Shown: positions 17,245-42,565, counted from the stretch's first letter. The stretch: 64,000 bases of DNA from Candidatus Buchananbacteria bacterium (GCA_903888345.1 CAISTG010000004.1:6393-70392), one strand, 5' to 3'. Numbers and translations: made by a program. The notes: a model not told the origin generated them from the sequence alone.

Positions 17245-18066
17245 ATGCCTGACAACGACACGAACGCCAACGTCAACGTTACCGAAACCGCAGCGACTCA
17301 GAAGGCTTCATGGAGCGAGCGGAGCAGGGCCTTTTTCCGCAAGATCAACCTGAGGAAGGTTGCTCCCATTGCCATGTTCGCCAGCTTCACCGTTTTGCTC
17401 CTCGTCGCTCTGATCCTGATCGGTATGCAGGCCGCCCAGGAAGTGAACTCAGTCAAAGCGACGGCCAATCAGGCGCTGTCTTTGGCCGCAACCACCTCCG
17501 ATCGGGTCGACACCGCCGAACAGGGGATTGCCCTACTCGCCGGAGAAAATCAGGCGCAGAATCAGCGCTTGACCGCCGTGGAACAAGCGACAGTGGTCGC
17601 GAGCGAAACTGCCACTGCTGCTGTCGCCAAAGCGGACACAGCCAATTCGCGGTTGAACGCGAAGAAGAAGGCCGATAACCAGTTGCACAAGCAGCATGTC
17701 GCCTACATCCGCGGTGCCAATCCTGACAGTCCGATTGCCAAGAAGAGCAACGCTGAAATCGAGGCGTTGCTCAATGATGGCATCTGGAACATCGAAGGCG
17801 ATATTCAGACCGAGTTTGATCGGCTGATCGCTCTCGCTGCTGCCCAGGCCAAGCAGACGGCCGACAGTGTCGTGGAGACTGCCAAGCTGACCGCCACCAA
17901 GTTGGAAGCGGTTGACGTGACGGCGACAAAGGCGCTTGCTGCCGGCGACACCGCAGTCTCGGGGATCAAAGTGATCGCCGATCAGCCTAACAAGCTTTTT
18001 GGCAAGTCGGTCAACGGCGACTCCAAGAAGACTCTCCAAGAGCTGGTGGCCACTTACTCCAAGTAA
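17245..18066 (+). CDS. Membrane-anchored Ala/Thr-rich coiled-coil protein (GC-rich cassette I3)
   Basis: 273 aa with one TM helix (MFASFTVLLLVALILIGM) followed by an Ala-rich helical ectodomain. About 55% GC. The antisense ORFs at 17310..17678 and 17533..18039 are GC artefacts. Confidence 0.65.
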   Translation: MPDNDTNANVNVTETAATQKASWSERSRAFFRKINLRKVAPIAMFASFTVLLLVALILIGMQAAQEVNSVKATANQALSLAATTSDRVDTAEQGIALLAGENQAQNQRLTAVEQATVVASETATAAVAKADTANSRLNAKKKADNQLHKQHVAYIRGANPDSPIAKKSNAEIEALLNDGIWNIEGDIQTEFDRLIALAAAQAKQTADSVVETAKLTATKLEAVDVTATKALAAGDTAVSGIKVIADQPNKLFGKSVNGDSKKTLQELVATYSK

Positions 18067-19685: not shown

Positions 19686-20207
19686 GTGAAAAACCAAAAA
19701 CTTCGAGCGATTGTGATGATGGTAGTTATTGTGAGCGGGCTAGCAGTAGCCGGTAATGCTTTAGCATTGGGCTACGCTTTAAAAGATGTGCCTTGCGCTC
19801 AAATTGGAACGACTGGTGCCGGTGGTTATGAAATGGCGCCGAGTTGTGGGCCCTGCGATCTAATCAGAGTCGGAGTCAATTTGACTAACATGATTATGGC
19901 AGTTAGTGGTAGTATTGCCTTACTGATGTTCGTGTTGGCGGGCGTGATGATGATTGCCTCTTTTGTTAATCCGAAATGGGTGACTACGGCTAAGGATACC
20001 GTTAAATATACTATTATTGGATTATTTCTGATTTTTAGTTCTTATACGATTGTTAATTTCGTCATCTCGGCGCTTTATGGCGGTGTCGGAGATATGGGCG
20101 TCTTACAGGGAAATTATGCCGCGATTACTGGTAAAGCCAATTGGGGCGTTTGTAGTAGTGCGAATTTAGGTACTGGTGCAGCCGGAACTCCGGCAGCGAC
20201 CAAGTAA
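19686..20207 (+). CDS. Secreted VirB2/TrbC-like pilin-domain protein, paralog 1
   Basis: Signal peptide, a Cys-containing ectodomain (CAQIGTTGAGGYEMAPSCGPCDL) and the family C-terminus of two hydrophobic helices separated by a short basic loop (AKDTVKYTIIGLFLIFSSYTIVNFVISAL). The start is GTG at 19686, and an alternative ATG lies at 19716. Confidence 0.6.
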   Translation: MKNQKLRAIVMMVVIVSGLAVAGNALALGYALKDVPCAQIGTTGAGGYEMAPSCGPCDLIRVGVNLTNMIMAVSGSIALLMFVLAGVMMIASFVNPKWVTTAKDTVKYTIIGLFLIFSSYTIVNFVISALYGGVGDMGVLQGNYAAITGKANWGVCSSANLGTGAAGTPAATK

Positions 20208-20221
20208 TTCAATTTGAAGAT

Positions 20222-20740
20222 ATGAAACTAAAATATTTTAACTTATCTATTGTATTGATGCTGTTATTTCTTGTTGTGGGTGTTTTTTCATTTATTAATA
20301 TTGCTACTGTTCAAGCAGAAACTTTAGAACAATGTTTTGATCGTTGTGTTAAAGAAAAAGGTGAGGCGACGCAAGCCGTAAATACTGCCGCGGAAGTAAA
20401 ATATCAAACCTGTATCACTGGTTGTCGAAATCCCGTGGTTGCCCCCGCTGCTTCTCAAGGTTATACTGCAGCACTAGTTGATCCTCTGGGCCTGAATAAA
20501 GCACAACCGATTGCTGATTTGGCGAAGCGTTTGATTATGACTACTCTGGGGTTAGTTGGTGTTCTGGCATTACTCGCGTTTATTTATGGCGGCGTCCTAT
20601 ATATGCTCGTTGGCGTTAAGGCTGACAATGTTAAGAAAGGTAAAGAAGTTATGAAGTGGGCAGTGGCTGGATTATTTTTAATTTTTTCCGCTTATGCTAT
20701 TTTGAATTTCTTGTTTACTACCGTGCTGGGCGTTAAATAA
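20222..20740 (+). CDS. Secreted VirB2/TrbC-like pilin-domain protein, paralog 2
   Basis: Signal peptide, 4-Cys ectodomain and a conserved C-terminus (KKGKEVMKWAVAGLFLIFSAYAILNFLFTTVLGVK). Confidence 0.65.
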   Translation: MKLKYFNLSIVLMLLFLVVGVFSFINIATVQAETLEQCFDRCVKEKGEATQAVNTAAEVKYQTCITGCRNPVVAPAASQGYTAALVDPLGLNKAQPIADLAKRLIMTTLGLVGVLALLAFIYGGVLYMLVGVKADNVKKGKEVMKWAVAGLFLIFSAYAILNFLFTTVLGVK

Positions 20741-20773
20741 TATCGGTCGCTATAATTTTATCAATTGCGCTTT

Positions 20774-21721
20774 ATGGAGAAAATTAAATTAAATATTTTA
20801 TTGGGTCTAATAGTCACTTGCGGCTTGTTGGCTATTGGGGGCGAGGTTAAAGCGGCTTGTATGTGTACTGAGGCGGGAGGGGTTTGTATGCATCATCCTT
20901 ACGTAGCGGCGCAATGTAATAGTTGTTTAAAAGCTAATGCCGCGAATTGCGCAGGTGAAATAGCGCCTGCATGTGACGAAGATAGTGGATTATGCCCTGG
21001 TTCCTTTCCGGCAGCGCAACAATGTCCTACTGTTTGTGACTACCCTGGAGGCAGCGTGCCTGACGGAACTGGTAAAGTTATAATTTGTCAGCCCACTGCC
21101 GCCTGTAAACCCACCGGAGTTGGGGTTCCAAAAACTCCGGCTAAACCAGCAACAACAAAGCCAGCAGCTAATAATTGTGATGTTTGTTATGATACTTATG
21201 GTGCTTGTATGCAGGATTCAAATAGTGCTGAATGCTTGTCTTGCGAGGCTGGTTGTTCTGCTGCAGCTACTACGGCTAATAGTTGCGATGTTTGTTATGG
21301 TGCCGGGGGAGTTTGTCAGACGGATTCTGATAGCGCTGAATGTGCGGCTTGTGCCAGTGGTTGTTCTGCGGGTGCGTCAGCGGGTGTCACACCAAGCGCT
21401 TCGACTCAGGGCAACATTGCTAACCCTAATGCTAATTCCGGTAGCGGTGTCGCCATCACCGATCCTTTAAATATAAATTCCAAAACACCGATTGCTGATC
21501 TAGCCAAAAAATTGATCAACATCATTCTTGGCTTGACTGGCGTCATAGCTTTGTTATCATTCATTTATGGTGGTGTTTTGTATATGCTCTCAGGTGTTAG
21601 TCCTGATAATGTCAAAAAAGGCAAAGAGGTTATGAAGTGGGCGGTTGCCGGTTTATTTATTATTTTTTCCAGTTATGCAATATTAAATTTCTTATTGACG
21701 ACGGTGCTGGGAGTAAAATAA
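20774..21721 (+). CDS. Secreted VirB2/TrbC-like pilin-domain protein with Cys-rich tandem-repeat ectodomain, paralog 3
   Basis: C-terminus is identical in pattern to paralog 2. The ectodomain contains two 36-aa repeats (NxCDVCY...C..DS.SAEC..C..GCSA) plus further Cys pairs. The start was set at the ATG at 20774, and the listed ORF begins with TTG at 20765. Confidence 0.65.
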   Translation: MEKIKLNILLGLIVTCGLLAIGGEVKAACMCTEAGGVCMHHPYVAAQCNSCLKANAANCAGEIAPACDEDSGLCPGSFPAAQQCPTVCDYPGGSVPDGTGKVIICQPTAACKPTGVGVPKTPAKPATTKPAANNCDVCYDTYGACMQDSNSAECLSCEAGCSAAATTANSCDVCYGAGGVCQTDSDSAECAACASGCSAGASAGVTPSASTQGNIANPNANSGSGVAITDPLNINSKTPIADLAKKLINIILGLTGVIALLSFIYGGVLYMLSGVSPDNVKKGKEVMKWAVAGLFIIFSSYAILNFLLTTVLGVK

Positions 21722-21803
21722 GTTTATTAATAAAAAATATTGTTGCTAATATAACAATATCCAAATCTCCTCTTGTAGGGGAACCAGGAAAGGGGGTGAC
21801 AAC

Positions 21804-22193
21804 ATGAAAAAAACAACTAAATACGCTTGCGCTAGTTTATTAACTTTGGGAACTGTAGCTTTAGTCGGTACTCCAGCTTTGGCGGCCGTCATCAGCGGTG
21901 TCCCAACTTTATCATCGATTAATTCTGCCAATGGTAGTGCCGTTTTCGGCTCTGCTACTTTGAGCGAAATTATTTCCGGTGTTATCAGCGTTATTCTAGC
22001 TTTCTTAGGCGTTATCACTGTCTTAATCATCCTGTGGGGAGGTTTCATTTGGATGACTGCTGGTGGCGAACCGGACAAGGTAGAAAAAGCCAAAAAAATG
22101 ATTTATTCCGGTATTATCGGCTTAATTATCATTTTTGCCGCCTACGCTATCGCTAATTTCGTAATGAGTGCTATCCAGGGAGTAACTAAATAG
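21804..22193 (+). CDS. Secreted VirB2/TrbC-like pilin-domain protein, paralog 4
   Basis: Signal peptide followed by WGGFIWMTAGGEPDKVEKAKKMIYSGIIGLIIIFAAYAIANFV. Confidence 0.65.
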   Translation: MKKTTKYACASLLTLGTVALVGTPALAAVISGVPTLSSINSANGSAVFGSATLSEIISGVISVILAFLGVITVLIILWGGFIWMTAGGEPDKVEKAKKMIYSGIIGLIIIFAAYAIANFVMSAIQGVTK

Positions 22194-22263
22194 TTATTTT
22201 ATTTCTTCTCTCGGGGATTGATCATGGTGTTCAATCCCCGGTTCGAGAAGAGCAATCAATATT

Positions 22264-22698
22264 ATGTCCATGAATAAAAAATACTTATCGTTAGTCATTG
22301 TTTCTTTGATTTTTTGTCCGTTGGCTGTTTCGGCTACCGGTGTGCTTACCGGCTTAAATAATACTGCCGCGGGAACTGGCTTGGATGCCAATAAAGACTT
22401 AATTACTTTTGTCGGAAAAATCATCGGTGTTATTTTGGGTCTCTTAGGCGCGGTGCTAGTTGTTATTCTGATTTATGCTGGAATTATGTGGGGTTTCTTA
22501 GCGCGTGGTGATAATACTCAAATTAAAAAAGCTAAAGAAATGATTATTAATGCAGTGATCGGACTGGCGATTGTCTTAGCCGCTTATGCGATTACCACTT
22601 TCGTGTTTACTAGTCTCAACAACGCTTTAGTTAATAATGTTAAGACGGCTAATCCGAACGTTAACTCGAATAATCCGGGTCAGTATTCGGCACAATAA
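22264..22698 (+). CDS. Secreted VirB2/TrbC-like pilin-domain protein, paralog 5
   Basis: Signal peptide followed by IYAGIMWGFLARGDNTQIKKAKEMIINAVIGLAIVLAAYAITTFV. Confidence 0.65.
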   Translation: MSMNKKYLSLVIVSLIFCPLAVSATGVLTGLNNTAAGTGLDANKDLITFVGKIIGVILGLLGAVLVVILIYAGIMWGFLARGDNTQIKKAKEMIINAVIGLAIVLAAYAITTFVFTSLNNALVNNVKTANPNVNSNNPGQYSAQ

Positions 22699-22740
22699 TT
22701 TAAAAATTAATTTATATTAAATAAAATAACAAATAAAATT

Positions 22741-23169
22741 ATGAACAGATCAATTGCCAAACTTGGCAAACAAGCAGCCGCCCTCGCGGCAACAATCGGT
22801 GCCTGCGCACTGCCGATGATGGCAGCGGCAGAAATTAAGTATTCCACTAACCTTAATAGTTTGGCTGGAGCTGCTGGCATTAGTACTGGTGGTAACAACA
22901 GTTTAGTACAGATTATCGGCGCGTTAATTGGTACCGTTTTGGTGCTACTCGGCGTGTTGTTGGTGGTGTTTATCTTATGGGCTGGTTTCATTTGGATGAC
23001 CTCTCAAGGTGAAGCAGGAAAGACCAAGAAAGCTAAGGATATGATTTATCAATCAATCATTGGTTTACTGATTATTTTTGCTGCTTATGCTATTACCAAT
23101 TTCGTTTTCTCGGCTTTGACTCATGTAGTTAATACCGGTTCAGCTTATACTGGTACGGGACAACAATAA
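22741..23169 (+). CDS. Secreted VirB2/TrbC-like pilin-domain protein, paralog 6
   Basis: Signal peptide followed by WAGFIWMTSQGEAGKTKKAKDMIYQSIIGLLIIFAAYAITNFV. Confidence 0.65.
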   Translation: MNRSIAKLGKQAAALAATIGACALPMMAAAEIKYSTNLNSLAGAAGISTGGNNSLVQIIGALIGTVLVLLGVLLVVFILWAGFIWMTSQGEAGKTKKAKDMIYQSIIGLLIIFAAYAITNFVFSALTHVVNTGSAYTGTGQQ

Positions 23170-28099: not shown

Positions 28100-28690
28100 T
28101 TAAAGGTGCTGCTCAATAATTGCTAACACAGCGGCAATTTTTTCATTCAAGTCGGAAATGCTAGTTATTACTTGTTGCTGGGGATGAACCGACCAAGCGG
28201 CTTTAATTTTATGTTCGATTGTTTGAGCTTCAACTAAAGACTCAAAACGCTCAGCATTATTGCCTCGGCCGTAAAGGTGCGGTGCGGTTACAGCCAATGA
28301 CTCCAGATGAATAACTGTCGTGTAGTTGGCGATAGCGTCCGCTTCATTAATATTATTACGGCGATAGAATTCAGCGGCGCCACCCGGAGTGTAGGCCGCT
28401 CCGTCTAAAATTCCGCGGTCGCAGACTAGCAAGGTTGCTCCTCGTTGCTCGGCCATCAATTGATACGAGTGTTCAAGGGAGGTTTGTAGGACAGTAACAG
28501 AGGCTTGAAAATCATGTTGCCAATCCTCACTCCAGGCTAGGTCACGACCCGGAACCGGGAAACCACCCGAGAGTAAAATTGTTGCTGCTTCTGGTACGAC
28601 TAATACTTGGCAGGGAAAATTCAGTTTAATAGCTTCTAGTGCGGAAGTCTTTCCGCCACAAGGGCCGCCGGTTAAAACGATTTTTTTCAT
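28100..28690 (-). CDS. P-loop NTPase, AAA_28/NadR-kinase-like (cassette I4, gene 6)
   Basis: Walker A is VLTGGPCGGKTS and Walker B is LLVCDRG. 196 aa with an AAAGGAG SD. GC-rich codons. Confidence 0.6.
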   Translation of the reverse strand: MKKIVLTGGPCGGKTSALEAIKLNFPCQVLVVPEAATILLSGGFPVPGRDLAWSEDWQHDFQASVTVLQTSLEHSYQLMAEQRGATLLVCDRGILDGAAYTPGGAAEFYRRNNINEADAIANYTTVIHLESLAVTAPHLYGRGNNAERFESLVEAQTIEHKIKAAWSVHPQQQVITSISDLNEKIAAVLAIIEQHL

Positions 28691-28824: not shown

Positions 28825-29454
28825 TTACCAATTGCCCGGGTATTTCTCTTTGCCCTCAGGCGTCGTCAGGTACTTCTCATCAATCACCTCCAGTATCTGC
28901 TTATCGACGTTAACTAGACCGATGCGATTGGTGCTGGTGCACAACACCTTAACCTCATCGCCGCCAACACCGCGGAAGCAGTCGAAGGCCGCCGATGCCG
29001 GGTGCTGGTGGTGATCAGTGTCCGTCACCACCGCCACCCTTTTGACACCAACCTTGATTGCCAGTAGTGCAATGATCGTGCCCAGCGGCATCTCCTCCTT
29101 AGCATACTTAACTTTGTTGGCCTGTGCCTGCCCGGATGGCGGAACCATCAAGTCAGTCAGGACGACGTCGAAGTTGGGGACGATTGTGAAGTCTTTGGTG
29201 GCCTGATTTTTGGCTAGCTGGTAAGCTGCCTTTTTGTTTGCCTCCTCTTCGGTAGCGCGCCAGGGATTGAAATCACCGAACAGCTCTTTCATCTTGGCGT
29301 CAATGGCGTCAAAGTCAGTCACCGGCAGTAGTGCTGCCTGCGCTTCGTCATAGGTGCCGACGACCGTCAAGTTGTGATCCTTGAGAGTAACTTCGGCAGC
29401 GGTACGATGAGCGGCACTGTCATCAAACACGAGGATGTTGAGTTTCGTTGTCAT
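28825..29454 (-). CDS. CheY/flavodoxin-like alpha/beta-fold protein, divergent REC-like (cassette I4, gene 5)
   Basis: Has ILVFDD (acidic pair), a possible phospho-acceptor context (DFDAIDAKM or FDVVLTDLMVP) and a later RVAVVTDTDHHQH strand. The long inserts are not canonical for a receiver domain. AAAGGAAG SD. Confidence 0.35.
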   Translation of the reverse strand: MTTKLNILVFDDSAAHRTAAEVTLKDHNLTVVGTYDEAQAALLPVTDFDAIDAKMKELFGDFNPWRATEEEANKKAAYQLAKNQATKDFTIVPNFDVVLTDLMVPPSGQAQANKVKYAKEEMPLGTIIALLAIKVGVKRVAVVTDTDHHQHPASAAFDCFRGVGGDEVKVLCTSTNRIGLVNVDKQILEVIDEKYLTTPEGKEKYPGNW

Positions 29455-31036: not shown

Positions 31037-31065
31037 AGTGTATCATAGCTAAAATATTTTGTCAA
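31037..31065 (-). promoter_or_regulatory. Sigma70-like promoter (TTGACA-17-TACACT) for the I4 operon
   Basis: Reverse complement reads cTTGACAaaatattttagctatgaTACACT. Confidence 0.5.
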
Positions 31066-31344
31066 GTATTACGACACTTAATAAATCTTTTGCGATAAAT
31101 TTAGCCAAAATATTGATTAAAATCACTTAATAATTTGATATAAATTTACAATAATGTCTAAATAATTTTGAATATTATGGGAAATTGATAACAAGAGTGT
31201 ATAACTAGTTAATTTTTAATTAATATTTGTCATAAATACCGACATTTAAAATACTAAAATATCGATTTGAGTAAATTTAGCCGTTCAAAATATCTATATT
31301 GTGTGATATACTATAATTAAGTAAGAGAAATAATTTACTATTGT

Positions 31345-31866
31345 ATGTCATCAGAAACTTTTGAAAATCAGAATCCCTTGGAAATCGAGCGTAAGTTTTT
31401 AATTCGTCAGCTGCCGACGGGATTAGGGGAGCAACAAGGAGAAAGAATTGAACAGGGCTATCTGGCCATCGATGCCAATTTGACCGAAGTACGTTTGCGA
31501 CATCGAGGCGAAAAATATTATCTAACCGTCAAGGGTGCCGGTATGGTTATTCGTAACGAATGGGAGATGGAGATTCCTGAAAATCAGTTTAATAAATTTT
31601 GGCCGGCGACAATTGGCCGGCGGTTAACAAAAACTCGCTATGAAATACCTTATGAAAATGTTATGATTGAAATAGATATTTATGCTGACAAGTTAAAGGG
31701 ATTAGTAACGGCTGAAGTTGAATTTAAATCGGAAGCAGAGATGGAAAGATTTGTGCCACCGGCCTGGTTAGGTGAGGAGGTAACGACTAATAATGATTAT
31801 AGAAACAAAAATTTAATTACTTTAAATGAGCTCGAAATTATAAAATTATTGCAGAGTAAGTTATGA
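31345..31866 (+). CDS. CYTH-domain protein (CyaB/thiamine-triphosphatase-like triphosphate tunnel metalloenzyme)
   Basis: Has the EIERKFLI (ExExK) motif, RxR, TVKG and the AEVEF...PPAWLGEEVT signature. Native AT-rich codons. Confidence 0.75.
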   Translation: MSSETFENQNPLEIERKFLIRQLPTGLGEQQGERIEQGYLAIDANLTEVRLRHRGEKYYLTVKGAGMVIRNEWEMEIPENQFNKFWPATIGRRLTKTRYEIPYENVMIEIDIYADKLKGLVTAEVEFKSEAEMERFVPPAWLGEEVTTNNDYRNKNLITLNELEIIKLLQSKL

Positions 31867-33527
31867 GACGCAAATCGCCAGAAACGACCATCAATAATTC
31901 AGAGGTAGAAACACGGGATTTAAGTTCCGAGTATTTTGCCGATGCTTATCCAAAGCCAGAAAAATTTATTGAAGTCCTAGAAGCGACTAATCCGGAATTG
32001 GTAGAAACCTACCAAGGGGTTCTTGCTCTTTGCGAGCGTTTGGTTAGTGAGGGCGGACAGGGATTGCTAGTTGGTGGTAGTGTCCGCGATTTTTATTCGG
32101 GCTTAGTGCCTAAGGATTATGATATCGAGGTTTATCGCATCGAGCTGGATTATTTACGTCAGATTTTGGCCGATTTCGGTGAAGTCAATGAAGTCGGTGC
32201 CTCGTTTATCGTTCTGAAAGTTACCTTGCAAAATGGTGATACGCTTGATGTTTCTTTGCCGCGGCGCGATAGCAAGGTTGGCGATGGCCATAATGACTTT
32301 GTAATCACGGCTGACCCCTCAATGAGTGTTAAAGAGGCGGCGCGCCGGCGCGATTTCACGATTAATTCGCTAGCGGCAAATCCGCTAACCGGAGAAGTTT
32401 TTAATTATTTTGATGGACTAAGAGATCTGAATAATAAGGTGTTAAGGGTGACTGATCCGAAAACTTTTACTGATGATGCTTTGCGAGTTCTGCGTGGCGC
32501 CCAGTTTACGGCGCGATTAGATTTAAATGTTGATCCTGATACTTTCGACTTTATGAAAAGCGTTGTACCAGCCTTAAAAAAGGTATCTAAAGTTCGATAT
32601 TTTGAGGAGTATGATAAATTACTGATTAAGGGTAATCGTCCATCACGGGGCTTGCAATTATTAAAAGATTTGGGCGCTTTAGGTATGTGTCATCCGGAGC
32701 TGGATGTTTTAGAAAGTTTGCCGCAAGAAAAAGAGTGGCATCCGGAAGGGGATGTTTGGAAGCACACTTTGATGGCAGTTGACGCGGCGAGCGAGCATTT
32801 GAATGATTTCGGACTCGATAAAAAACAAAAATCAAATGTCATGCTGGCAACTTTATGTCATGACTTGGGCAAAGCCACCACGACGCAACCCAATCACGAT
32901 AAGCTTAACAGCGAGGGTTTGCCGCGGATTACTTCACATGGACATGAAGAGGCGGGTGAAATACCGACCAAAAACTTTTTGTCGAGTATTGGACTAGATG
33001 CTAAAAATGTTGAATTTAAAAAAATTATCAAGTTAGTAACGGAACATCTATCGCCAACCCTGCTTTATGCCAGTCGCTTTGAAGGTAATAATCGAGTTAA
33101 AGCGGCGGCTGACGGCGCCATTCGGCGTTTGGCCAAAAGAATTTTTCCAGCGACGATTAGGGAGTTAGTGGCGGTGGCAACAGCTGATCATTTAGGGCGG
33201 GGGCCATTTACCGAAGCTGATGGTCAAATCCTCATCAATCTCTATACGGCCGGCACTTGGCTAGTTCGGGAAGCGGAACGACTCGGGGTTGATCGTGAAC
33301 CGGCGCCTAAATTGCTGAGTGGCAAGGATCTTTTGATTCTGGGATTTCAACCAGGGGAAAATATGGGACGCGTTATCGCTTTAGCTGATAATTTGCGCGA
33401 TGCAAAACATTTGACGGAAAATGATGTGTTAGGGGAGATACTTTTCACGAAACCCGAGGGAATTAGCAGCAGCCAGGACGAAGCAGAAGTAATCGCGGCC
33501 TTAGAAAAAATACTTAGTACTGAATAA
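31863..33527 (+). CDS. cca: Pol-beta-family nucleotidyltransferase with C-terminal HD domain (CCA-adding enzyme / poly(A) polymerase family)
   Basis: Head domain GLLVGGSVRDFY...DYDIEV and RRDFTINSLA. HD motif LCHDLGK. Its start overlaps the CYTH gene's stop (ATGA), so the two are co-transcribed. Confidence 0.7.
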   Translation: MRRKSPETTINNSEVETRDLSSEYFADAYPKPEKFIEVLEATNPELVETYQGVLALCERLVSEGGQGLLVGGSVRDFYSGLVPKDYDIEVYRIELDYLRQILADFGEVNEVGASFIVLKVTLQNGDTLDVSLPRRDSKVGDGHNDFVITADPSMSVKEAARRRDFTINSLAANPLTGEVFNYFDGLRDLNNKVLRVTDPKTFTDDALRVLRGAQFTARLDLNVDPDTFDFMKSVVPALKKVSKVRYFEEYDKLLIKGNRPSRGLQLLKDLGALGMCHPELDVLESLPQEKEWHPEGDVWKHTLMAVDAASEHLNDFGLDKKQKSNVMLATLCHDLGKATTTQPNHDKLNSEGLPRITSHGHEEAGEIPTKNFLSSIGLDAKNVEFKKIIKLVTEHLSPTLLYASRFEGNNRVKAAADGAIRRLAKRIFPATIRELVAVATADHLGRGPFTEADGQILINLYTAGTWLVREAERLGVDREPAPKLLSGKDLLILGFQPGENMGRVIALADNLRDAKHLTENDVLGEILFTKPEGISSSQDEAEVIAALEKILSTE

Positions 33528-33681
33528 ATTTTAAACTCCGCCCTCGTTTGGGGCGGAGTTTTGGGCTTGAGCAATAATTACTTTGTCGTCATTTGTGACA
33601 TTTTTTGCATTAAATGCAGACAACTGATAATATAATAATATTGGTTAAGATTAATGATTTGTCAAAAATTTAGACAGCAAT

Positions 33682-34419
33682 ATGCTATTAGAACAATACC
33701 TACAAAATATCGGACTCGACGATAAAGAGGCTAAATTATATTTGGCGGGCTTACAACTTGGTCCGGCGAGTATTCAGGATTTGGCCAAAGCGGCTAATAT
33801 CAAACGCACCACTATTTATGAAATTGTGGAAACTTTAATTAGCAAGAATTTATTTACGGTAACACAAAAAGGTAAGCGAAAATTATTTGTGGCTCAAGAA
33901 CCCGATAATTTACTGTTGTTTCTCAAGCAGCGCGAAAATATTTTAGAACAGATCATGCCGGATTTGGAATCTTTAAAAAATAGTACGGCGACACGGCCAG
34001 CGATTAGGATTTATGAGGGGGTCGAAGGCGTTAAACAGGTCTATTTGGATATGTTAAAAAAGCCTGGTGAATTATCAATTTTAGCAGCGCCACCGGAAAT
34101 GATTGCTAAAACGATTAGCGACTATCTGGATAAAGAGTGGGAGCCACTGCGACGAAAAAGTAAAATTGCTAAACGTTGGGTTAAAATTAACGACAGCGGG
34201 CAAGTGCGACGAGACTTTACAAAAGAAGAATTTGCTAATAAACTGGAAACAATTAAGTATTTACCGGCGGCGGGCTATCCGTTTACGGTCGGTATTTATC
34301 TCTATCGTCAAAAAACCGCTTTCGTGTCATTTAGTGAAAACGAAATGGTGGCCATCGTTATTCGTAGTCCAGAAATCAATCGAACTTTGAAGTTGATTTT
34401 TGAAATGTATTTCAAGTAA
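33682..34419 (+). CDS. TrmB-family transcriptional regulator (wHTH)
   Basis: N-terminal wHTH (LGLDDKEAKLYLAGLQLGPASIQDLAKAANIKRTTIYEIVETLISKNL) followed by the TrmB C-terminal domain. Confidence 0.65.
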   Translation: MLLEQYLQNIGLDDKEAKLYLAGLQLGPASIQDLAKAANIKRTTIYEIVETLISKNLFTVTQKGKRKLFVAQEPDNLLLFLKQRENILEQIMPDLESLKNSTATRPAIRIYEGVEGVKQVYLDMLKKPGELSILAAPPEMIAKTISDYLDKEWEPLRRKSKIAKRWVKINDSGQVRRDFTKEEFANKLETIKYLPAAGYPFTVGIYLYRQKTAFVSFSENEMVAIVIRSPEINRTLKLIFEMYFK

Positions 34420-34432
34420 TAAAGTAATATTT

Positions 34433-36382
34433 ATGAAACTTAAATCGGTCGAGTCCGGTCCCGTGCTGGAGCAGAATCTCACTCAACAAATCGAAACTAA
34501 TTTGCAGGAATTAGAAAGTCAGCAGACACCGGTGGTGGGCGAGTTGGTAACAATTGAAAATAATCCCGATTACAGCTTTGTCCATTTGCCACCTTTTTAT
34601 ATTCCGCGCTCAACCAAAGAACAATTGGCTTTAGATCGGGGAGTGAAATTAGGCGGCTTAGAATTGGATAGCGGCCGCTTCTTGCCGTTGCACGCTTCAT
34701 TACTGGAGATTGTTAAGCAAAGGATCAGAGAGATTCGGGAAAAATATGCCGGCAGTCGTAAAGACCTGGCCTTGGAACAGCAAAAGCAGGCGGATCTAAG
34801 ACGGTTAGAACAAGAAGTTATCGCCGTTTTGGTGCCGCGGATTGCGAGTGAAAAAAAGCGGGCCATTAATGGTCAACCGTCATTGCAGTTTTATACTCTA
34901 CTAGAAAAGCAAAAGCGGTCTGGCGCTTCGGTGGAAGCGGCGGCAGAAAAACCACCAACGCCGGCCGAAATGATTGATTTAAGCAATTTGGATTTTACTC
35001 AATTAGTTGGCATCACTAATCTCGAAGAATTTGTTGGCACGGCCGTAGCCGAGCAACCAGAAGAGACTCTGGTAAAAGTAAGCAAAAAAGTTGCCGGGAA
35101 GTCCACCTCCGCTTTATTGCCTAATGATTTACAACGTTTACGCTATAACTTAGGTAAACCCATGAAGGAGCGGACGCCTGAGGAATGGTCGGCCGTGGTT
35201 GAAGATTATATTAGGCTAATGGATTATATGCCGCAGTATTTAGAGCATCGTTTGGCGGTTTTGGATTTATTTAGTCGTTATCAAAAAGGCGAACTGAAGA
35301 TGCCCGAGACTATCCTGAGTGTCGCTTCTGGTCCTTATGAAGAGGCACGGGCACAAATGGATTTTGATTATCTGTATCAGGAATTAGATTTAAAGCAACC
35401 GCAAATTATTAATTATGATTTTGTACGCGATATTTTGGTTAAAGGCGAAGCGGGCTATTTGGATAAGGCGGTTAAAGAAAATAAGGATGATCTGGTAGTG
35501 CCGTTTCAAGTGCAAGGTGATATGCGTCAGTTAGCTTTTAAGACGGAGGCCGTGGATATGGTCGAATGCTCTTCATTGGATAATGTTATTAACCATCAAG
35601 AAGATTTAGATCAATCAATTGCAGAAATAGCGCGCGTAACAAAAATCGGTGGCATTATCAGGCTAACTTATAAGGGTCAACTGCCGGAGAAGTTTTATGA
35701 TTTTTTGGAAGCGAGTGGTTTGAAATTGTTAACGGCTCGTCACACCGTATTTCAATTGTCGAAAGCAAAATTAACTGAAATCAAACGTGTTTATGGCGAT
35801 GTCTTCGCGAATAAACTAAAACAGAAATTAAGTCGAAAGGCCGAATATATCATGGCGGTTAAAATTGCCGAGCAACGGGCAGCACCGAATTTGGCGGCCG
35901 CAGTGATAACTGAGTTGCAAACACCATCAGAACCAGCAGCAATTGAAGAAGTGATCAGCGTCAAAACGGCGGAGCAGGAATTAATGGATCAGACGCGCGA
36001 GGCGATCAGAAAAAAACGCGCGGCTGTCGGTAATGATATTCGTTTATCCTTAATCCGGGATGCGGCGGCGGGCTTGTTCTTTCACAATGGCGAGCCCCTC
36101 GAGTTGGATAAGCATAAGATTAACGAGTTAATTAGTTTGACGCATTTAGGCAGTCCGCAACGCCTAGAAACAATCAAACGATACCAGGAATTACCGCGCT
36201 ATTTTCGAATCTCTTTGTTGCAAGAAGAATATTTCAGTGGCTATCAGGACTTAGTATTAGACGGAATATTGGGAGAGGATTTTGCGGCGTTGCCGGGCAT
36301 TGAAAAATTAGCGGAAAAAAATTATCGAGCTTATGAAAAGTTGCGACTAATGTTTAACCAAGCAAGAAAAAATGATAAATAG
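34433..36382 (+). CDS. Large hypothetical protein with central class I methyltransferase-like domain
   Basis: Motif I-like ILSVASGP, acidic-loop DLVVPFQ, VDMVECSSLDNV and IARVTKIGGIIRL (motif III). The flanks are charged and helical. The start was set at the ATG at 34433, and the listed ORF start at 34400 overlaps the TrmB gene. Confidence 0.45.
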   Translation: MKLKSVESGPVLEQNLTQQIETNLQELESQQTPVVGELVTIENNPDYSFVHLPPFYIPRSTKEQLALDRGVKLGGLELDSGRFLPLHASLLEIVKQRIREIREKYAGSRKDLALEQQKQADLRRLEQEVIAVLVPRIASEKKRAINGQPSLQFYTLLEKQKRSGASVEAAAEKPPTPAEMIDLSNLDFTQLVGITNLEEFVGTAVAEQPEETLVKVSKKVAGKSTSALLPNDLQRLRYNLGKPMKERTPEEWSAVVEDYIRLMDYMPQYLEHRLAVLDLFSRYQKGELKMPETILSVASGPYEEARAQMDFDYLYQELDLKQPQIINYDFVRDILVKGEAGYLDKAVKENKDDLVVPFQVQGDMRQLAFKTEAVDMVECSSLDNVINHQEDLDQSIAEIARVTKIGGIIRLTYKGQLPEKFYDFLEASGLKLLTARHTVFQLSKAKLTEIKRVYGDVFANKLKQKLSRKAEYIMAVKIAEQRAAPNLAAAVITELQTPSEPAAIEEVISVKTAEQELMDQTREAIRKKRAAVGNDIRLSLIRDAAAGLFFHNGEPLELDKHKINELISLTHLGSPQRLETIKRYQELPRYFRISLLQEEYFSGYQDLVLDGILGEDFAALPGIEKLAEKNYRAYEKLRLMFNQARKNDK

Positions 36383-36394
36383 ATAGAAAAAATT

Positions 36395-37075
36395 ATGAAT
36401 TATCAGCAGGTCTTAAAAGCGATCCAGAATCGCGATAGTCAAGACGCACGATTGGAGAAAATCAATCGGGCGAAGCTCTTGAAATTAAAATTAAAGTTGT
36501 ATAAACCGAAGCGTGTCTTGACGGTTAATACTGGTAAAATCGAAGGCGTCGACAAAGTGGCGCAATATCTAAAAACACAATTGAAGAAAGCAGAAAATAT
36601 TATTACGTTAGAGGGTGTTTCCGGTTCTGGCAAATCGTCGACCGCTCAATTATTGGCCGGGAAGATCGGCGCGATTCGTTTTTCGTTTGGGGAGTTATTT
36701 CGCTATCTGACATATTTACGTTTGGTAAAGGGGATTGATGATTTGGAGCCGGTGTTCAAGAAATTACGTTATCGTTATAGCGGGTCAAAGTTATCATTGT
36801 GGCATGATAAGAAAAACGTTTCCAAGGGTTTAGACCGGGAATTGCGCGATCCAAAAATTGAAGCCTTGGTGCCCAAGGTGGCTGAAGTCACGCAAAAGTC
36901 GTCAATCGAATTGTTTGCTAAAGAGATTACGGTGCTGGCAGATTCGGGTCATAAGATTATTATTGAAGGTCGTGCTTTCACTTTAGACTTCTTGCCATCA
37001 GACGCGCGGATTAAATTACGCTGCGCGGCCAGTGTTCGGGCGAAGCGACGCTTGAAGCAAATACAAAAAAAATAA
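36395..37075 (+). CDS. P-loop kinase, cytidylate-kinase-like
   Basis: Walker A is LEGVSGSGKSSTAQ. Resembles Cmk/AAA_18. No LID domain recognised. Confidence 0.5.
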   Translation: MNYQQVLKAIQNRDSQDARLEKINRAKLLKLKLKLYKPKRVLTVNTGKIEGVDKVAQYLKTQLKKAENIITLEGVSGSGKSSTAQLLAGKIGAIRFSFGELFRYLTYLRLVKGIDDLEPVFKKLRYRYSGSKLSLWHDKKNVSKGLDRELRDPKIEALVPKVAEVTQKSSIELFAKEITVLADSGHKIIIEGRAFTLDFLPSDARIKLRCAASVRAKRRLKQIQKK

Positions 37076-37080
37076 AAATA

Positions 37081-37116
37081 AAAACGCCTCGGCTAATTGC
37101 CGGGGCGTTGTTGTCT
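37081..37116. terminator. Bidirectional terminator between the kinase(+) and the CYTH xenolog(-)
   Basis: AACGCCTCGG-ctaattg-CCGGGGCGTT hairpin. The minus-strand side is followed by TTTTTATTTTTATTTT. Confidence 0.7.
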
Positions 37117-37117
37117 A

Positions 37118-37669
37118 TTAAAGTACGGTAGCGCCACTTGCCAGTTCTGTAAAGGTTTGGGTGCCGCTGAGCATGCGCCCGGTATAGAGGACGTCCTCAG
37201 TTACTTCTTTGCCAAACCAAATTGGCGGAGCGAAATTTGCAGCCTCTTCCGTGGTGGCAAACTTTACTTCGGCAATAATCAGGCCGTTAAGGCGGTTACC
37301 TTCGAAAACGTCAAGCTCGATTGTCTTGTCGCCATAAGGCAGCCAATAGCGCTTCTTCTGTAGAGCCGATTGCAAGCTATTGCAATGAAGCTTGAATGTG
37401 GCCTCATCAATCTCCACCTCCATCTTGGTCCGGACTAGTCCGTCTTCAAACTTGGCAGAGATGAAGTAGCGTTTACCGAGATGCTCAACGTTACCCGCAG
37501 TATTGCGAATCCGTTGTTCCTCGCGGAAGCGGATGATATTTTCACCATCAATGCCCTGGATAAAACCACTGCGACAGTTAATATACTCGGTCTCGGCAAG
37601 CGAAGGCATTGCTGGCGGCATAACAATAAACTTTCTTTCAATTTCTGTTTTCAGGTGTTCATTACTCAT
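37118..37669 (-). CDS. CYTH-domain protein, GC-rich xenolog of the native CYTH gene (cassette I5)
   Basis: Has EIERKFIV and AEVKF...PPIWFGKEVTED. Carries a GAGGAG SD and C/G-ending codons. The start was set at the second ATG. Confidence 0.7.
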   Translation of the reverse strand: MSNEHLKTEIERKFIVMPPAMPSLAETEYINCRSGFIQGIDGENIIRFREEQRIRNTAGNVEHLGKRYFISAKFEDGLVRTKMEVEIDEATFKLHCNSLQSALQKKRYWLPYGDKTIELDVFEGNRLNGLIIAEVKFATTEEAANFAPPIWFGKEVTEDVLYTGRMLSGTQTFTELASGATVL

Positions 37670-37756
37670 GACTCTTCTCCTCATTGGTTGGGGACAGATT
37701 GTTAAAAGGGCGGTTGATTAACCATAGTCTTTTTTAAGTATTTTGTCAAGTGTGAC

Positions 37757-37795
37757 TCCTTGATTGACCCTAGCTTATTTTTATGATATAATGAT
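37757..37795 (+). promoter_or_regulatory. Sigma70-like promoter (TTGACC-17-TATAAT) upstream of rny
   Basis: Reads aTTGACCctagcttatttttatgaTATAATgat. Confidence 0.45.
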
Positions 37796-40167: not shown

Positions 40168-40183
40168 AACTACCGATAGTTAA

Positions 40184-40216
40184 AAAGCAATCCGCTTTGG
40201 CGGGTTGCTTTTTTGA
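40184..40216 (+). terminator. Intrinsic terminator after lemA
   Basis: AGCAATCCGC-tttg-GCGGGTTGCT followed by TTTTTTG. Confidence 0.8.
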
Positions 40217-40309
40217 TTCTCTTAAAGACGTTGGTTAATTTAGGTAGCTAATAGTTCATCTAAATTTAGGCTAAATATTGGTTAATATCTAATTTTAGAG
40301 ATAATACAA

Positions 40310-40338
40310 TTGACAAAATAGATATTATATGTTAATAT
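40310..40338 (+). promoter_or_regulatory. Consensus sigma70 promoter (TTGACA-17-TAATAT) for cassette I6
   Basis: Reads aTTGACAaaatagatattatatgtTAATAT. Confidence 0.6.
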
Positions 40339-40443
40339 ATTATATTGGTAAACTATCATTTCGATAGAGCCATTGGGTACCTTTTCAACTATTGATCCTG
40401 ACTGATTGATTTCGGTTACGGGGAGATAGAAAGGACGGAAAAC

Positions 40444-41124
40444 ATGTCGACAAAGAAGAGCCTCAGTTGGAAGGAAGCGGGTCGGAATGTGGCAGCGCTG
40501 GTAGCGTTGTTTACCTTGGCCAGCCGGGTCTTGAAAAAGATTAAAGTCGGTCCGGAGATCATTGATTGGTTGACGGGCTCCGGTAAGGATTTATTCAGCC
40601 AGAAGCTGATTGAACTGGGTACTGAGTTTCAGCTCCAAGCCCCTATTTTGCGGGCCGAAATCGATACAAACATTGATCCGCGTTTGCCCATTGGTGGGGC
40701 GACAATCGATACACATCGGCGCCAGGGAAGGGTGGTGATCGAAAAGCGGGTTGATGGCTTGTATGTAGATGGACATAAGGTCGTTTTGTATCGATCGCCC
40801 AGGCAAATGTACGGCAACAAAATCAATGGCCGTGAATTACGTATTGAATTGGATGGTCAGACCCATGATCGATCAGCACTTTCAGCGAATGTTGCCGACT
40901 TCCTATTTGCTAACCAAGAGTATCTGCCGGAAGATTGGAAGAAGAAAGATGAAAACGATAAAACCATTTTTATCTTGTTTTGGGGCACCATCTATCGACG
41001 CTTTGATCGCAGTCCCTGCATTCGAACTCTGTGTTGGTGTGATGGTCAGTGTCATGAGAATTGTTACTGGCTCGGCCTTGATTGTTACTCCAACTTTTAT
41101 TCAGCAGTGCTCGAAAATAAGTAG
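40444..41124 (+). CDS. Hypothetical protein with Cys-rich C-terminus (GC-rich cassette I6)
   Basis: 226 aa with a C-terminal CIRTLCWCDGQCHENCYWLGLDCY. C/G-ending codons. It sits between lemA and htpX. Confidence 0.6.
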   Translation: MSTKKSLSWKEAGRNVAALVALFTLASRVLKKIKVGPEIIDWLTGSGKDLFSQKLIELGTEFQLQAPILRAEIDTNIDPRLPIGGATIDTHRRQGRVVIEKRVDGLYVDGHKVVLYRSPRQMYGNKINGRELRIELDGQTHDRSALSANVADFLFANQEYLPEDWKKKDENDKTIFILFWGTIYRRFDRSPCIRTLCWCDGQCHENCYWLGLDCYSNFYSAVLENK

Positions 41125-41146
41125 TTAGTCTGTTCTTTAATCTTTA

Positions 41147-41183
41147 CCCGCGTTGGCCTCTGGCTGACGCGGTCTTTTATTTT
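41147..41183 (+). terminator. Intrinsic terminator of cassette I6
   Basis: CGCGTTGGCC-tctg-GCTGACGCG hairpin followed by GTCTTTTATTTT. Confidence 0.7.
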
Positions 41184-41238
41184 CAGTAAATTGCTAATTA
41201 TATTGATATTTGCTAAAATTACGGTATAAAATATCTAT

Positions 41239-42126
41239 ATGTATAATGAAATTGCTTCCAATAAACGCCGGACATGGCTGTTAATCGCTATTTTTACTGC
41301 CGTTATTCTGGCTATTGGCTGGTTTGCTGGCTATTATTTTGATTATGGCTATGGCGCTGTTGGTGTGGCTTTGGTATTTTCTTTGGTCATGACCGCGTTT
41401 AGCTATTATGGTGGCGACAAGGTAGCCTTAATGTCTTCGGGAGCCCAAGAAATTCAGCATGACGATAATGAAGCGCTATTCCATGTGGTGGAAAATTTAT
41501 GTATTGCCGATGGTCTACCGATGCCCAAAATTTATCTATTGCCAGAAGAGGCGATCAATGCGTTCGCAACTGGTCGCGATCCGCAGCATGCTTCTATTGC
41601 TGTGACTGTTGGAGCGCTAAAAAAATTAAACAATGAAGAATTAGAGGGTGTAATTGCTCATGAATTATCACATGTCAAAAATTATGACATTAGATTAATG
41701 ATGGTAGTAGTGGTTTTGGTGGGCATGATTTCTATTTTGGCTAATATATTTTTTCGTGGCGCGATGTTTGGGGGTGGCAAGCGTGACAGCGAAGATCGTG
41801 GTGGCGGAATTTTGATGATTGTAGGAATTGTGTTAATTATTTTATCACCGATCATTGCTCAGTTAATCCAGTTAGCGATTTCTCGCCGTCGGGAATATTT
41901 AGCTGATGCTTCAGGCGCTTTATTAACGCGTTATCCGGATGGCCTGGCCAATGCGCTCGAAAAGATTAATACCGATGCAGCTGTTATTAATTCAGCCTCA
42001 TCGGCCACGGCCCATCTCTATATTGCCAATCCATTTAAAGGATCGGGCAAAATGTTTGCTAATGCTTTTTCGACTCATCCGCCGATTGAAGATCGAGTTA
42101 AGAGGCTAAGAGGAATGATCATTTAG
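41239..42126 (+). CDS. htpX: Zinc metalloprotease HtpX (M48 family)
   Basis: HELSHVKNYD (HExxH) motif with 4 TM helices. Full-length HtpX architecture. Confidence 0.9.
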   Translation: MYNEIASNKRRTWLLIAIFTAVILAIGWFAGYYFDYGYGAVGVALVFSLVMTAFSYYGGDKVALMSSGAQEIQHDDNEALFHVVENLCIADGLPMPKIYLLPEEAINAFATGRDPQHASIAVTVGALKKLNNEELEGVIAHELSHVKNYDIRLMMVVVVLVGMISILANIFFRGAMFGGGKRDSEDRGGGILMIVGIVLIILSPIIAQLIQLAISRRREYLADASGALLTRYPDGLANALEKINTDAAVINSASSATAHLYIANPFKGSGKMFANAFSTHPPIEDRVKRLRGMII

Positions 42127-42162
42127 AAAATTACGAATTCAAAATTACGAATTACGAATTTT
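42127..42162. repeat. Left arm of perfect inverted repeats flanking the four-helix-bundle gene
   Basis: AAAATTACGAATTCAAAATTACGAATTACGAATTTT. Its reverse complement matches the right arm at 42528-42560. Confidence 0.8.
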
Positions 42163-42176
42163 ATATAATTTAGCAC

Positions 42177-42533
42177 ATGAAGGAAAATAATATTATTTTG
42201 AAAAAATCTTTTGATTTTTCATTAAGAATAATTAAATTATATAAATTTCTAAGAAGTAAGAAAGAATTTATAATTTCTAACCAGTTATTGGGGTCTGGAA
42301 CATCAATAGGCGCAAATATTGAGGAGGCAGTTGGCGGAGTATCCAAAAAAGATTTTTTGAATAAAATAACTATTGCTTATAAGGAGGCTAGGGAAACGAG
42401 TTATTGGATAAAATTGTTGGGAGCTAGTGGCTATTTAGATGCTATTCAATCTCAGTCTATTTTAATGGATTGCGAGGAACTCCTTCGTATACTAGGCAAG
42501 ATTCAAATTTCAAGCAAAACTGATAATCCGTAA
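42177..42533 (+). CDS. Four-helix-bundle protein (23S rRNA intervening-sequence protein family, TIGR02436-like)
   Basis: 118 aa with the family pattern (SFDFSLRIIKLYKFL...NQLLGSGTSIGANIEEA...AYKEARETSYWIKLL). Confidence 0.75.
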   Translation: MKENNIILKKSFDFSLRIIKLYKFLRSKKEFIISNQLLGSGTSIGANIEEAVGGVSKKDFLNKITIAYKEARETSYWIKLLGASGYLDAIQSQSILMDCEELLRILGKIQISSKTDNP

Positions 42534-42560
42534 TTCGTAATTTTTAATTCGTAATTAATC
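42528..42560. repeat. Right arm of the inverted repeats flanking the four-helix-bundle gene
   Basis: CCGTAATTCGTAATTTTTAATTCGTAATTAATC. Confidence 0.8.
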
Positions 42561-42565
42561 TAGCT

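Follow-up and report, generated by a model that had tools for sequence, protein, structure and literature searches.

A CYTH gene overlapping a cca-like gene in an apparently rearrangement-prone region of a Candidatus Buchananbacteria genome

The closest known systems for the CYTH proteins described here are NeuTTM, the specific inorganic triphosphatase of Nitrosomonas europaea (NE1496, PDB 2FBL/3TYP), and, grouped with it, the short bacterial CYTH enzymes of the CthTTM type. Tyr28 and Lys52 were proposed as the catalytic dyad of NeuTTM (PMC3440374), and in the C-terminal ExE motif the first Glu binds metal site 1, whereas the second joins two further ligands in holding the metal of the catalytic site 2 (PMC4641920). 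The CYTH or triphosphate tunnel metalloenzyme (TTM) family (PF01928) is marked by an N-terminal ExExK motif and by a tunnel formed as a barrel of eight beta-strands; NeuTTM-type enzymes hydrolyse inorganic triphosphate with Mg2+ and have an alkaline optimum. Class IV (CyaB-like) adenylate cyclases carry the signature HFxxxxExExK (PMC8233210). Here we analysed a 64-kb stretch of a genome of Candidatus Buchananbacteria (Patescibacteria, candidate phyla radiation (CPR)), called the window below, in which a CYTH gene (CYTH1) overlaps the gene for a class II nucleotidyltransferase with an HD domain (NTase/HD, a cca-like gene) and a second CYTH gene (CYTH2) lies nearby on the opposite strand. The CYTH and NTase genes belong to already known families. 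We found that the CYTH neighbourhood is kept only within a narrow clade, with strand and partner changing, and that the operon with cca occurs only in this genome. The region is quite probably a rearrangement-prone Patescibacteria stretch with ordinary nucleotide and tRNA housekeeping genes, and not the site of a dedicated CYTH-NTase module.

The following genes, obtained by calling open reading frames (ORFs), are in question:
31345-31866, plus strand: CYTH1, predicted canonical NeuTTM-like CYTH/TTM triphosphatase of 173 aa (Pfam CYTH, PDB 2fbl, tree).
31863-33527, plus strand: class II NTase with HD domain, 554 aa, read as the version of E. coli-type CCA-adding enzyme that Patescibacteria have (Pfam, NCBIfam, alignment with Cca).
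33682-34419, plus strand: TrmB-family winged helix-turn-helix (wHTH) regulator of 245 aa (Pfam TrmB E=7e-13; BLASTP).
34400-36382, plus strand: P660, a lineage-specific 660-aa protein with a partial S-adenosylmethionine (SAM) methyltransferase match.
36395-37075, plus strand: Cmk-like P-loop kinase of 226 aa (Pfam Cytidylate_kin; TIGR00017).
37118-37669, minus strand, within the longer ORF 37118-37684: CYTH2, a divergent, lineage-restricted CYTH/TTM protein of 183 aa with Y28F/E61K/E116K in NeuTTM numbering (homology, model, dN/dS).

As the initial annotation had described, a TrmB regulator, a large methyltransferase-like protein (660 aa by our ORF calling) and a Cmk-like kinase lie between the two CYTH copies. 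The homologs come from Patescibacteria, namely Buchananbacteria, Uhrbacteria, Magasanikbacteria and Falkowbacteria, and their loci are given L numbers below. The 4-nt ATGA overlap between CYTH1 and the NTase/HD gene (GTTATGAGACGC) was confirmed, and the NTase start is backed by 99-100% query coverage in the four closest homologs. Tight packing is common in the window, where 11 of the 48 gene pairs running in the same direction either overlap or stand at most 15 nt apart, so that an ATGA overlap is a weak sign of functional coupling.

The initial annotation had taken the two genes for a fixed operon. In 80 genome loci centred on NTase/HD homologs, with at most 10 kb per side (about 25 from Patescibacteria, the remainder mostly from Acidobacteriota), a CYTH gene was found within ±10 kb in 0/80 loci. 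The count was the same 0/80 on a re-scan with a broader CYTH hidden Markov model (HMM), the full-length E. coli ygiF as query and the HMMER filters off (--max), and the idea that ygiF-type CYTH genes near the NTase homologs had been missed was rejected on this count. Likewise, a set of 80 metagenome loci around homologs of CYTH1, of which 29 span at least 5 kb, gave an NTase/HD gene in 0/80. The adjacency was also absent in the close relatives L001, L007-9, L013, L180 and L182. The fixed operon is thus contradicted by both sets of loci and by a gene order that differs among relatives; the adjacency is not conserved, which is the result that the initial annotation had itself named as speaking against it.

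Comparison of the gene order in the relatives shows how the neighbourhood changes. In L001, whose CYTH is 58% identical, a PRK-CYTH fusion gene, CYTH, a 655-aa gene, TrmB and the Cmk-like gene follow one another in the same direction, with no NTase. In L011 (NTase 59% identical), AAA_28, CYTH and a 79-aa gene point away from NTase and TrmB, and in L010 (NTase 64%) AAA_28 and, after other genes, CYTH point away from NTase, a 185-aa gene and TrmB. These two are the only relatives with CYTH near the NTase, and there it lies on the divergent strand and is not co-transcribed with NTase/HD. L007-9 (NTase 65%) are without CYTH, Maf precedes the NTase in L180 (57%), and the other relatives hold Maf, NIF3 or nothing at the place of CYTH1. 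In the closest relative, L013 (~87% nucleotide identity), TrmB and the Cmk-like gene are followed by CYTH2 on the opposite strand and then by RNase Y in the first direction; an unrelated 1209-aa gene lies upstream of TrmB. The partner of CYTH in L010 and L011 has a counterpart in the window, apart from CYTH1:
28100-28690, minus strand: AAA_28 P-loop kinase-like gene (Pfam AAA_28 E=4.5e-19; synteny with L010 and L011).
The L011 ortholog of this gene directly follows CYTH on the same strand.

The second member of the pair resembles E. coli Cca, with the same head, neck and HD architecture and the same GGxVRD, DxD, RRD and HD motifs. The 554-aa protein has the domains PolyA_pol (PF01743), PolyA_pol_RNAbd (PF12627) and HD (PF01966), all above cut-offs, and is 32% identical to Cca (E=1e-42) across head, neck and HD (residues 69-471 versus 5-366). 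The residues G71, G72, R75, D76 (GG..RD), D85, D87 (DxD), R162-D164 (RRD) and H333, D334 (HD) are invariant in a 26-sequence alignment. Compared with Cca, the window protein has ~64 extra N-terminal and ~40 extra C-terminal residues, which are common to all Patescibacteria homologs. The 40-aa N-terminal extension pointed out in the initial annotation is therefore present but not special, since every sequence in the alignment has this N-terminal region. The family is large (6584 matches), homologs at 45-46% identity are named CCA tRNA nucleotidyltransferase by NCBI, and homologs at 47% identity (L182/183) are surrounded by aminoacyl-tRNA synthetase, RuvA and RpoBC genes. The 64 kb hold one class II NTase only, and a CCA-adding enzyme is needed because the sole tRNA gene of the window (tRNA-Ser) is without encoded CCA. 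We read the protein as a putative housekeeping CCA-adding/repair enzyme. Its specificity is assumed, since its scores lie below the equivalog cut-offs and some Patescibacteria have paralog pairs, as given below; the PDB matches (~1e-18) cover the NTase head domain only and do not tell CCA-adding enzymes and poly(A) polymerases apart. The proposal of a coupled activity beyond plain CCA addition is disfavoured by the unconserved adjacency and by the alignment with Cca over head, neck and HD.

Several observations weigh against this reading of an ordinary housekeeping region. The sequence basis is 64 kb of the genome. NTase/HD missed every NCBIfam equivalog cut-off, the best model being PRK10885 (multifunctional CCA addition/repair protein) with 156.1 bits against a cut-off of 451, and TIGR02692 gave 117 bits against 439. 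Two NTase/HD paralogs occur in some Patescibacteria (L019 plus L093, and a tandem pair in L073). CYTH lies ~0.5-0.8 kb from NTase/HD in L010 and L011, which are NTase relatives of the window, and Maf, which precedes the NTase in L180, is a nucleoside triphosphate (NTP) pyrophosphatase. In E. coli K-12 (L179, NC_000913.3 3199664-3203129), ygiF is divergent from ygiM-cca, with 926 bp from ygiF to cca. E. coli thus has the gene of a CYTH inorganic triphosphatase (in ygiF-glnE) less than 1 kb from an HD-type cca gene (in ygiM-cca), the two being divergent as in L010 and L011; E. coli differs in that ygiF is a CYTH-CHAD gene and ygiM stands between, whereas the window genes are co-directional and overlapping. 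Because of the E. coli neighbourhood, a loose functional association of CYTH with cca is conceivable. The proximity common to the CPR clade and E. coli is an unreported parallel; our literature search for a CYTH-CCA or ygiF-cca link gave nothing relevant.

Taken together with the overlap and the shared transcription unit of CYTH1 and NTase/HD, the neighbourhoods of L010, L011, L180 and E. coli are what would be cited for a functional pair, in which CYTH1 would, for example, remove inorganic triphosphate (PPPi) or NTPs, or make a substrate ready, while its partner acts on tRNA ends or signalling nucleotides in a way that goes beyond CCA addition. We consider such a pair very unlikely. It was seen in neither set of 80 loci, orientation and gene order are different in every relative, the CYTH1 ortholog of L001 sits in an operon without any NTase, and NTase/HD has the standard architecture and invariant motifs of CCA enzymes. 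In two phages that carry a CYTH gene, no CCA enzyme is annotated within 5 kb of that gene. As for the paralogs mentioned above, L019 and L093 belong to the same Uhrbacteria metagenome-assembled genome (MAG), SZUA-46, and the tandem pair lies at L073:8564-11397; two such paralogs may possibly reflect a split of CC-adding and A-adding activities.

CYTH1 keeps the catalytic set of NeuTTM. It matches Pfam CYTH (E=3e-9) and NE1496 (2FBL, E=3e-34), the latter match suggesting a tunnel fold, and it clades with sequences P0002/P0003 in 98/100 neighbour-joining bootstraps. Mapped onto NE1496, the residues ExExK, Y28, R39/R41, K52, K85/R87 and E114-x-E116 are intact; the Tyr28-Lys52 dyad corresponds to its own Y39 and K63, and its C-terminal ExE motif reads AEVEF. 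From these residues, hydrolysis of PPPi or NTPs is predicted as the most likely activity of CYTH1. The signatures EIERKF and AEV(E/K)F reported in the initial annotation are present in both CYTH copies, EIERK being the N-terminal ExExK motif. HF is missing from the position required by HFxxxxExExK in both (ENQNPLEIERK in CYTH1 and NEHLKTEIERK in CYTH2), and the name 'adenylate cyclase' given in databases is therefore unsupported for either copy.

CYTH2 has the same fold as NeuTTM in its predicted structure and differs in its residues. It has no Pfam match, matches NE1496 at E~3e-17 and shares 32% identity with CYTH1 (E=1e-22), in agreement with the earlier description of a second CYTH copy nearby on the opposite strand. 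Its start at 37669, as first read, also holds: ATGAGTAAT and the upstream GAGGAG are kept in L013, and the start of the longer ORF is not. An AlphaFold model from a 40-sequence alignment predicts a mainly beta-strand TTM barrel (pLDDT 88, pTM 0.83), whose best PDB matches are NE1496 first and also AtTTM3 and SaTTM, with TM-scores of 0.71-0.74 normalised to the target, that is, the NeuTTM fold. In the NE1496 mapping, CYTH2 keeps E4, E6, K8, R39, R41, K52, K85, R87 and E114, and three positions are changed in 3/3 known clade members: Tyr28 to Phe, Glu61 to Lys and Glu116 to Lys, at the dyad, tunnel and metal-site-2 positions. The dyad thus has Phe at the place of Tyr with Lys kept, and the ExE region reads AEVKF in 3/3 clade members, with the second Glu lost. 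Because the catalytic Tyr and two tunnel glutamates are substituted, the published mechanisms predict that the triphosphatase chemistry of CYTH2 is altered or lost.

The two CYTH copies appear to have separate histories. The CYTH2 clade was never sister to the CYTH1 clade (0/100 neighbour-joining bootstraps), which agrees with the claim that the copies are not recent tandem paralogs, and CYTH2 grouped with P0122/P0123 in 100/100, tending toward a Bacteroidota-like and a phage-like sequence. The initial annotation had further seen in CYTH2 a foreign-composition copy carried on a GC-rich cassette. The separate origin from CYTH1 stood, and the recent foreign copy did not, by synteny, synonymous divergence (dS), GC content and the search for a donor. 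Against a baseline of 64 window ORFs (mean gene GC 0.426, sd 0.050), CYTH2 has a GC of 0.480 (z=+1.1), while the true outliers of the window reach 0.52-0.58, and its L013 ortholog has a GC of 0.438 within a 0.402 locus. The gene lies within an uninterrupted 3785-nt alignment to L013 (87.6% identity) that spans LemA, RNase Y, CYTH2 and the Cmk-like gene. Its dS to L013 is 0.66 (neighbours 0.41-1.59) and its dN/dS, the ratio of nonsynonymous to synonymous divergence, is 0.10 (neighbours 0.02-0.05). By these measures CYTH2 is a functional, vertically inherited gene that evolves faster than its neighbours.

Recent acquisition of CYTH2 as a foreign gene on a GC-rich mobile cassette would fit its GC content at third codon positions (GC3; 0.524 versus ~0.40 in the neighbours), its absence at the Cmk-RNase Y junction of the more distant L001, its nearest relatives on a Bacteroidota-like and a phage-like contig, and its place in the tree apart from CYTH1. 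We consider it very unlikely in view of the low z score, the L013 block and the dS like that of flanking genes. Flanking repeats are not convincing, only short imperfect 12-18-nt matches being found, and the genes identified between 25.5 and 42.1 kb include no integrase. When 1.84 billion representatives were searched exhaustively with HMMER, CYTH2 was alone at E≤1e-30; the next match, outside its own clade, had E=3e-19 and 41% identity, and no donor at 50% identity or above was found among them. A phage origin was rejected, with phage CYTHs at most 36% identical. Because CYTH2 is absent from L001, an older gain is possible, and such an acquisition may predate the split of the window and L013. 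On our best reading, CYTH2, which sits on a long branch, would be an old paralog or a gene acquired long ago and native by now. P0142, one of the nearest relatives of CYTH2, lies at L177:1267-1833; the contig is phage-like, and the neighbouring genes encode radical-SAM, ThyX and N6/N4 DNA methyltransferase proteins.

The regulatory context of these genes centres on the TrmB-family regulator, whose orthologs in L001, L010, L011 and L013 are 67-87% identical (BLASTP). The following sites were found by motif and consensus scans:
31059-31076, plus strand: palindromic site 1, TTGTCAAGTATTACGACA, exact motif, kept in L001, L010 and L011.
31227-31244, plus strand: palindromic site 2, TTGTCATAAATACCGACA, exact motif, 168 nt after site 1, kept in L001, L010 and L011.
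31284-31312, plus strand: promoter-like site TTCAAA-17-TATACT with an upstream TG, 33 nt before the CYTH1 start (consensus scan only).
33533-33561, no strand assigned: GC-rich hairpin after cca with an 11-pair stem and 7 GC pairs, scored terminator-like on the minus strand.
33583-33601, no strand assigned: palindromic site 3 with 1 mismatch, in the cca-TrmB spacer (motif scan).
33659-33676, plus strand: palindromic site 4 with 1 mismatch, 6 nt before the TrmB start, kept upstream of L013 TrmB (motif scan).
37083-37109, no strand assigned: hairpin terminator with an 11-pair stem and 8 GC pairs in the 42-nt gap between the Cmk-like gene and CYTH2, scored on the plus strand.
37721-37749, minus strand: CYTH2 promoter-like site TTGACA-17-TATGGT (consensus scan; spacer 91% identical to L013).
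37764-37792: RNase Y promoter-like site, back to back with that of CYTH2 (consensus scan).
The hairpin at 33533-33561 probably ends the CYTH1-cca transcription unit, and that at 37083-37109 probably serves both convergent genes, Cmk-like and CYTH2.

The palindrome TTGTCA-N7-CGACA, or TTGTCA-N7-(C/T)GACA in its wider form, has 6 matches in the window against 1.02 expected, and 4/6 are at this locus, sites 1 and 2 being in the AT-rich spacer upstream of CYTH1. Paired sites 148-169 nt apart precede the first plus-strand gene of L001, L010 and L011, whichever gene that is, and one site precedes the L013 TrmB (L001:680/849, L010:5205/5353, L011:7733/7893, L013:6435). The palindrome co-occurs with an orthologous TrmB in 5/5 loci, and loci with TrmB paralogs only are motif-free; other Patescibacteria loci gave 10 matches in 368 kb. 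Because it tracks the orthologous TrmB in every relative, the palindrome is a candidate TrmB operator. Against a pure operator role, site 1 overlaps a minus-strand promoter-like TTGACA-17-TACACT and coincides with its -35-like box. The palindrome may thus serve as a promoter in both directions, as an operator for TrmB, or as both. Neither structured RNA nor tRNA was found in the conserved 30.9-31.3 kb spacer (ARAGORN, Rfam), and structured RNA as the cause of the spacer conservation was rejected, as promoter/operator elements explain it better.

These observations raise the question of whether TrmB controls the entire cluster as a single regulon for nucleotide homeostasis, made up of CYTHs, kinases (AAA_28, PRK-CYTH, Cmk-like) and cca, in which the true coupling would be between CYTH and kinase, as in plant TTM1/2. 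Three CYTH-kinase pairings are consistent with it: the PRK-CYTH fusion of L001, CYTH abutting AAA_28 in L011, and, in both L013 and the window, the convergence of the Cmk-like gene and CYTH2. The co-occurrence of palindrome and orthologous TrmB, and a TrmB-family gene near the NTase in ~10 Patescibacteria loci, point the same way. However, the palindrome may be merely a conserved bidirectional promoter with TrmB binding as a candidate role only, the TrmB association is limited to one narrow clade so that the loci are not independent, and convergent genes with a common terminator do not imply co-regulation. Such a regulon therefore seems to us unlikely. The 495-aa fusion of L001 (L001:1078-2565), PRK (uridine-kinase-like) plus CYTH, stands directly upstream of the CYTH1 ortholog and resembles plant AtTTM1/AtTTM2, which are fusions of a uridine-kinase-like P-loop domain with CYTH. 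Its CYTH half has DVQDK instead of ExExK, and AtTTM1/2 are likewise without ExExK (PMC8233210). The window differs from AtTTM1/2 in having no fusion, with CYTH and kinase genes separate.

Returning to the genes read here as ordinary members of a rearranging stretch, P660 and the Cmk-like kinase were compared with their counterparts. P660 matches Methyltransf_11 (E=2e-7) over residues 359-420 only. Compared with L013 and L001, the gene stands inserted between TrmB and the Cmk-like gene (synteny break 34424-36389), and its product has no similarity to the 655-aa protein of L001 or the 1209-aa protein of L013; homology among these three large variable proteins was accordingly rejected. Three window segments are missing from the collinear L013, namely 34424-36389 (P660), 40169-41237 (a 226-aa ORF) and 42126-42564 (a 118-aa AT-rich ORF), and frequent small gene insertions and deletions are therefore indicated in the lineage.

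The Cmk-like kinase, with orthologs at L001:5940-6620 and L013:4988-5668, appears to be circularly permuted. In its native order, Pfam Cytidylate_kin (PF02224) gave 62.1 bits over model positions 1-154 of 211, and TIGR00017 gave 59.0 bits against an equivalog cut-off of 135.55. Cytidylate kinases carry P-loop, NMP-binding and C-terminal RD..D segments contiguously in that order, which differs from the order here. Its N-terminus (YQQVLKAIQNRDSQDA...) resembles the C-terminal IQxRDxxD segment of Cmk. When residues 1-65 were moved in silico to the C-terminus, the Pfam score rose from 62.1 to 74.9 bits with coverage of 1-176, and the TIGR00017 score from 59.0 to 70.7 bits. A literature search found no report of a circularly permuted Cmk.

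Other features of the window were noted. Four GC-rich ORFs, 7739-8857 (minus), 17245-18066 (plus), 28825-29454 (minus) and 61643-62356 (plus), have a GC of 0.52-0.58 and a GC3 of 0.63-0.73 (z 1.9-3.1), and none has a Pfam family above cut-off. They have no mutual similarity, and 'GC-rich cassettes' as one family were rejected. ORF 28825 is among the small genes filling the slot of L011's CYTH gene. A 17-nt box, TAAATTTAGCCAAAATA, occurs 10 times at up to 3 mismatches against 1.14 expected (window 8991, 17072, 31096, 40261, 56348/56357 and others); about half of the copies are intergenic and precede genes on the plus strand, among them the GC-rich ORF 17245 and gene 40444, which is specific to the window. 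A run of small paralogous type IV secretion system (T4SS)-pilin/TrbC-like genes (window 19686-23169) is kept in L011:1-1885. A defence-system reading was rejected, as the PADLOC matches were weak and generic (HD, wHTH and P-loop domains).

The present arrangement could have arisen in the following way. The CYTH gene, which in relatives lies on the opposite strand and is coupled to the AAA_28 kinase gene, would have moved directly before cca, and CYTH1 and cca would today be transcribed together as a pair, up to the hairpin 33533-33561, with the ATGA overlap presumably a product of genome compaction. The 554-aa enzyme would carry out CCA addition and repair. TrmB, P660 and the Cmk-like gene would make up a second unit, in which TrmB and Cmk-like are the putative ancestral pair and P660 was inserted. 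Both units would stand behind copies of the palindrome, the candidate TrmB operator/promoter element. CYTH2 would be separately transcribed, vertically inherited and fast-evolving, and would belong to a different CYTH subclade.

More speculatively, the proximity of CYTH and cca could reflect a loose functional link, for example the clearing of PPPi or aberrant NTPs for tRNA 3'-end synthesis and repair, controlled by a TrmB-family repressor devoted to it. Independently of this, the tunnel of CYTH2 could have been re-wired so that the protein has ceased to hydrolyse triphosphate and binds or senses a phosphorylated ligand alongside the permuted Cmk-like kinase. That both should hold together is, in our view, a long shot.

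The main lesson is one of caution: in compact CPR genomes, the conservation of a neighbourhood should be checked before function is inferred from gene overlaps. If the minor leads are true, these Patescibacteria would have in common with E. coli a CYTH-cca proximity that has drawn no remark, and would further have a TrmB operator specific to their lineage, a TTM variant in which the catalytic Tyr is lost and two tunnel Glu residues are changed to Lys, and a naturally permuted cytidylate kinase.

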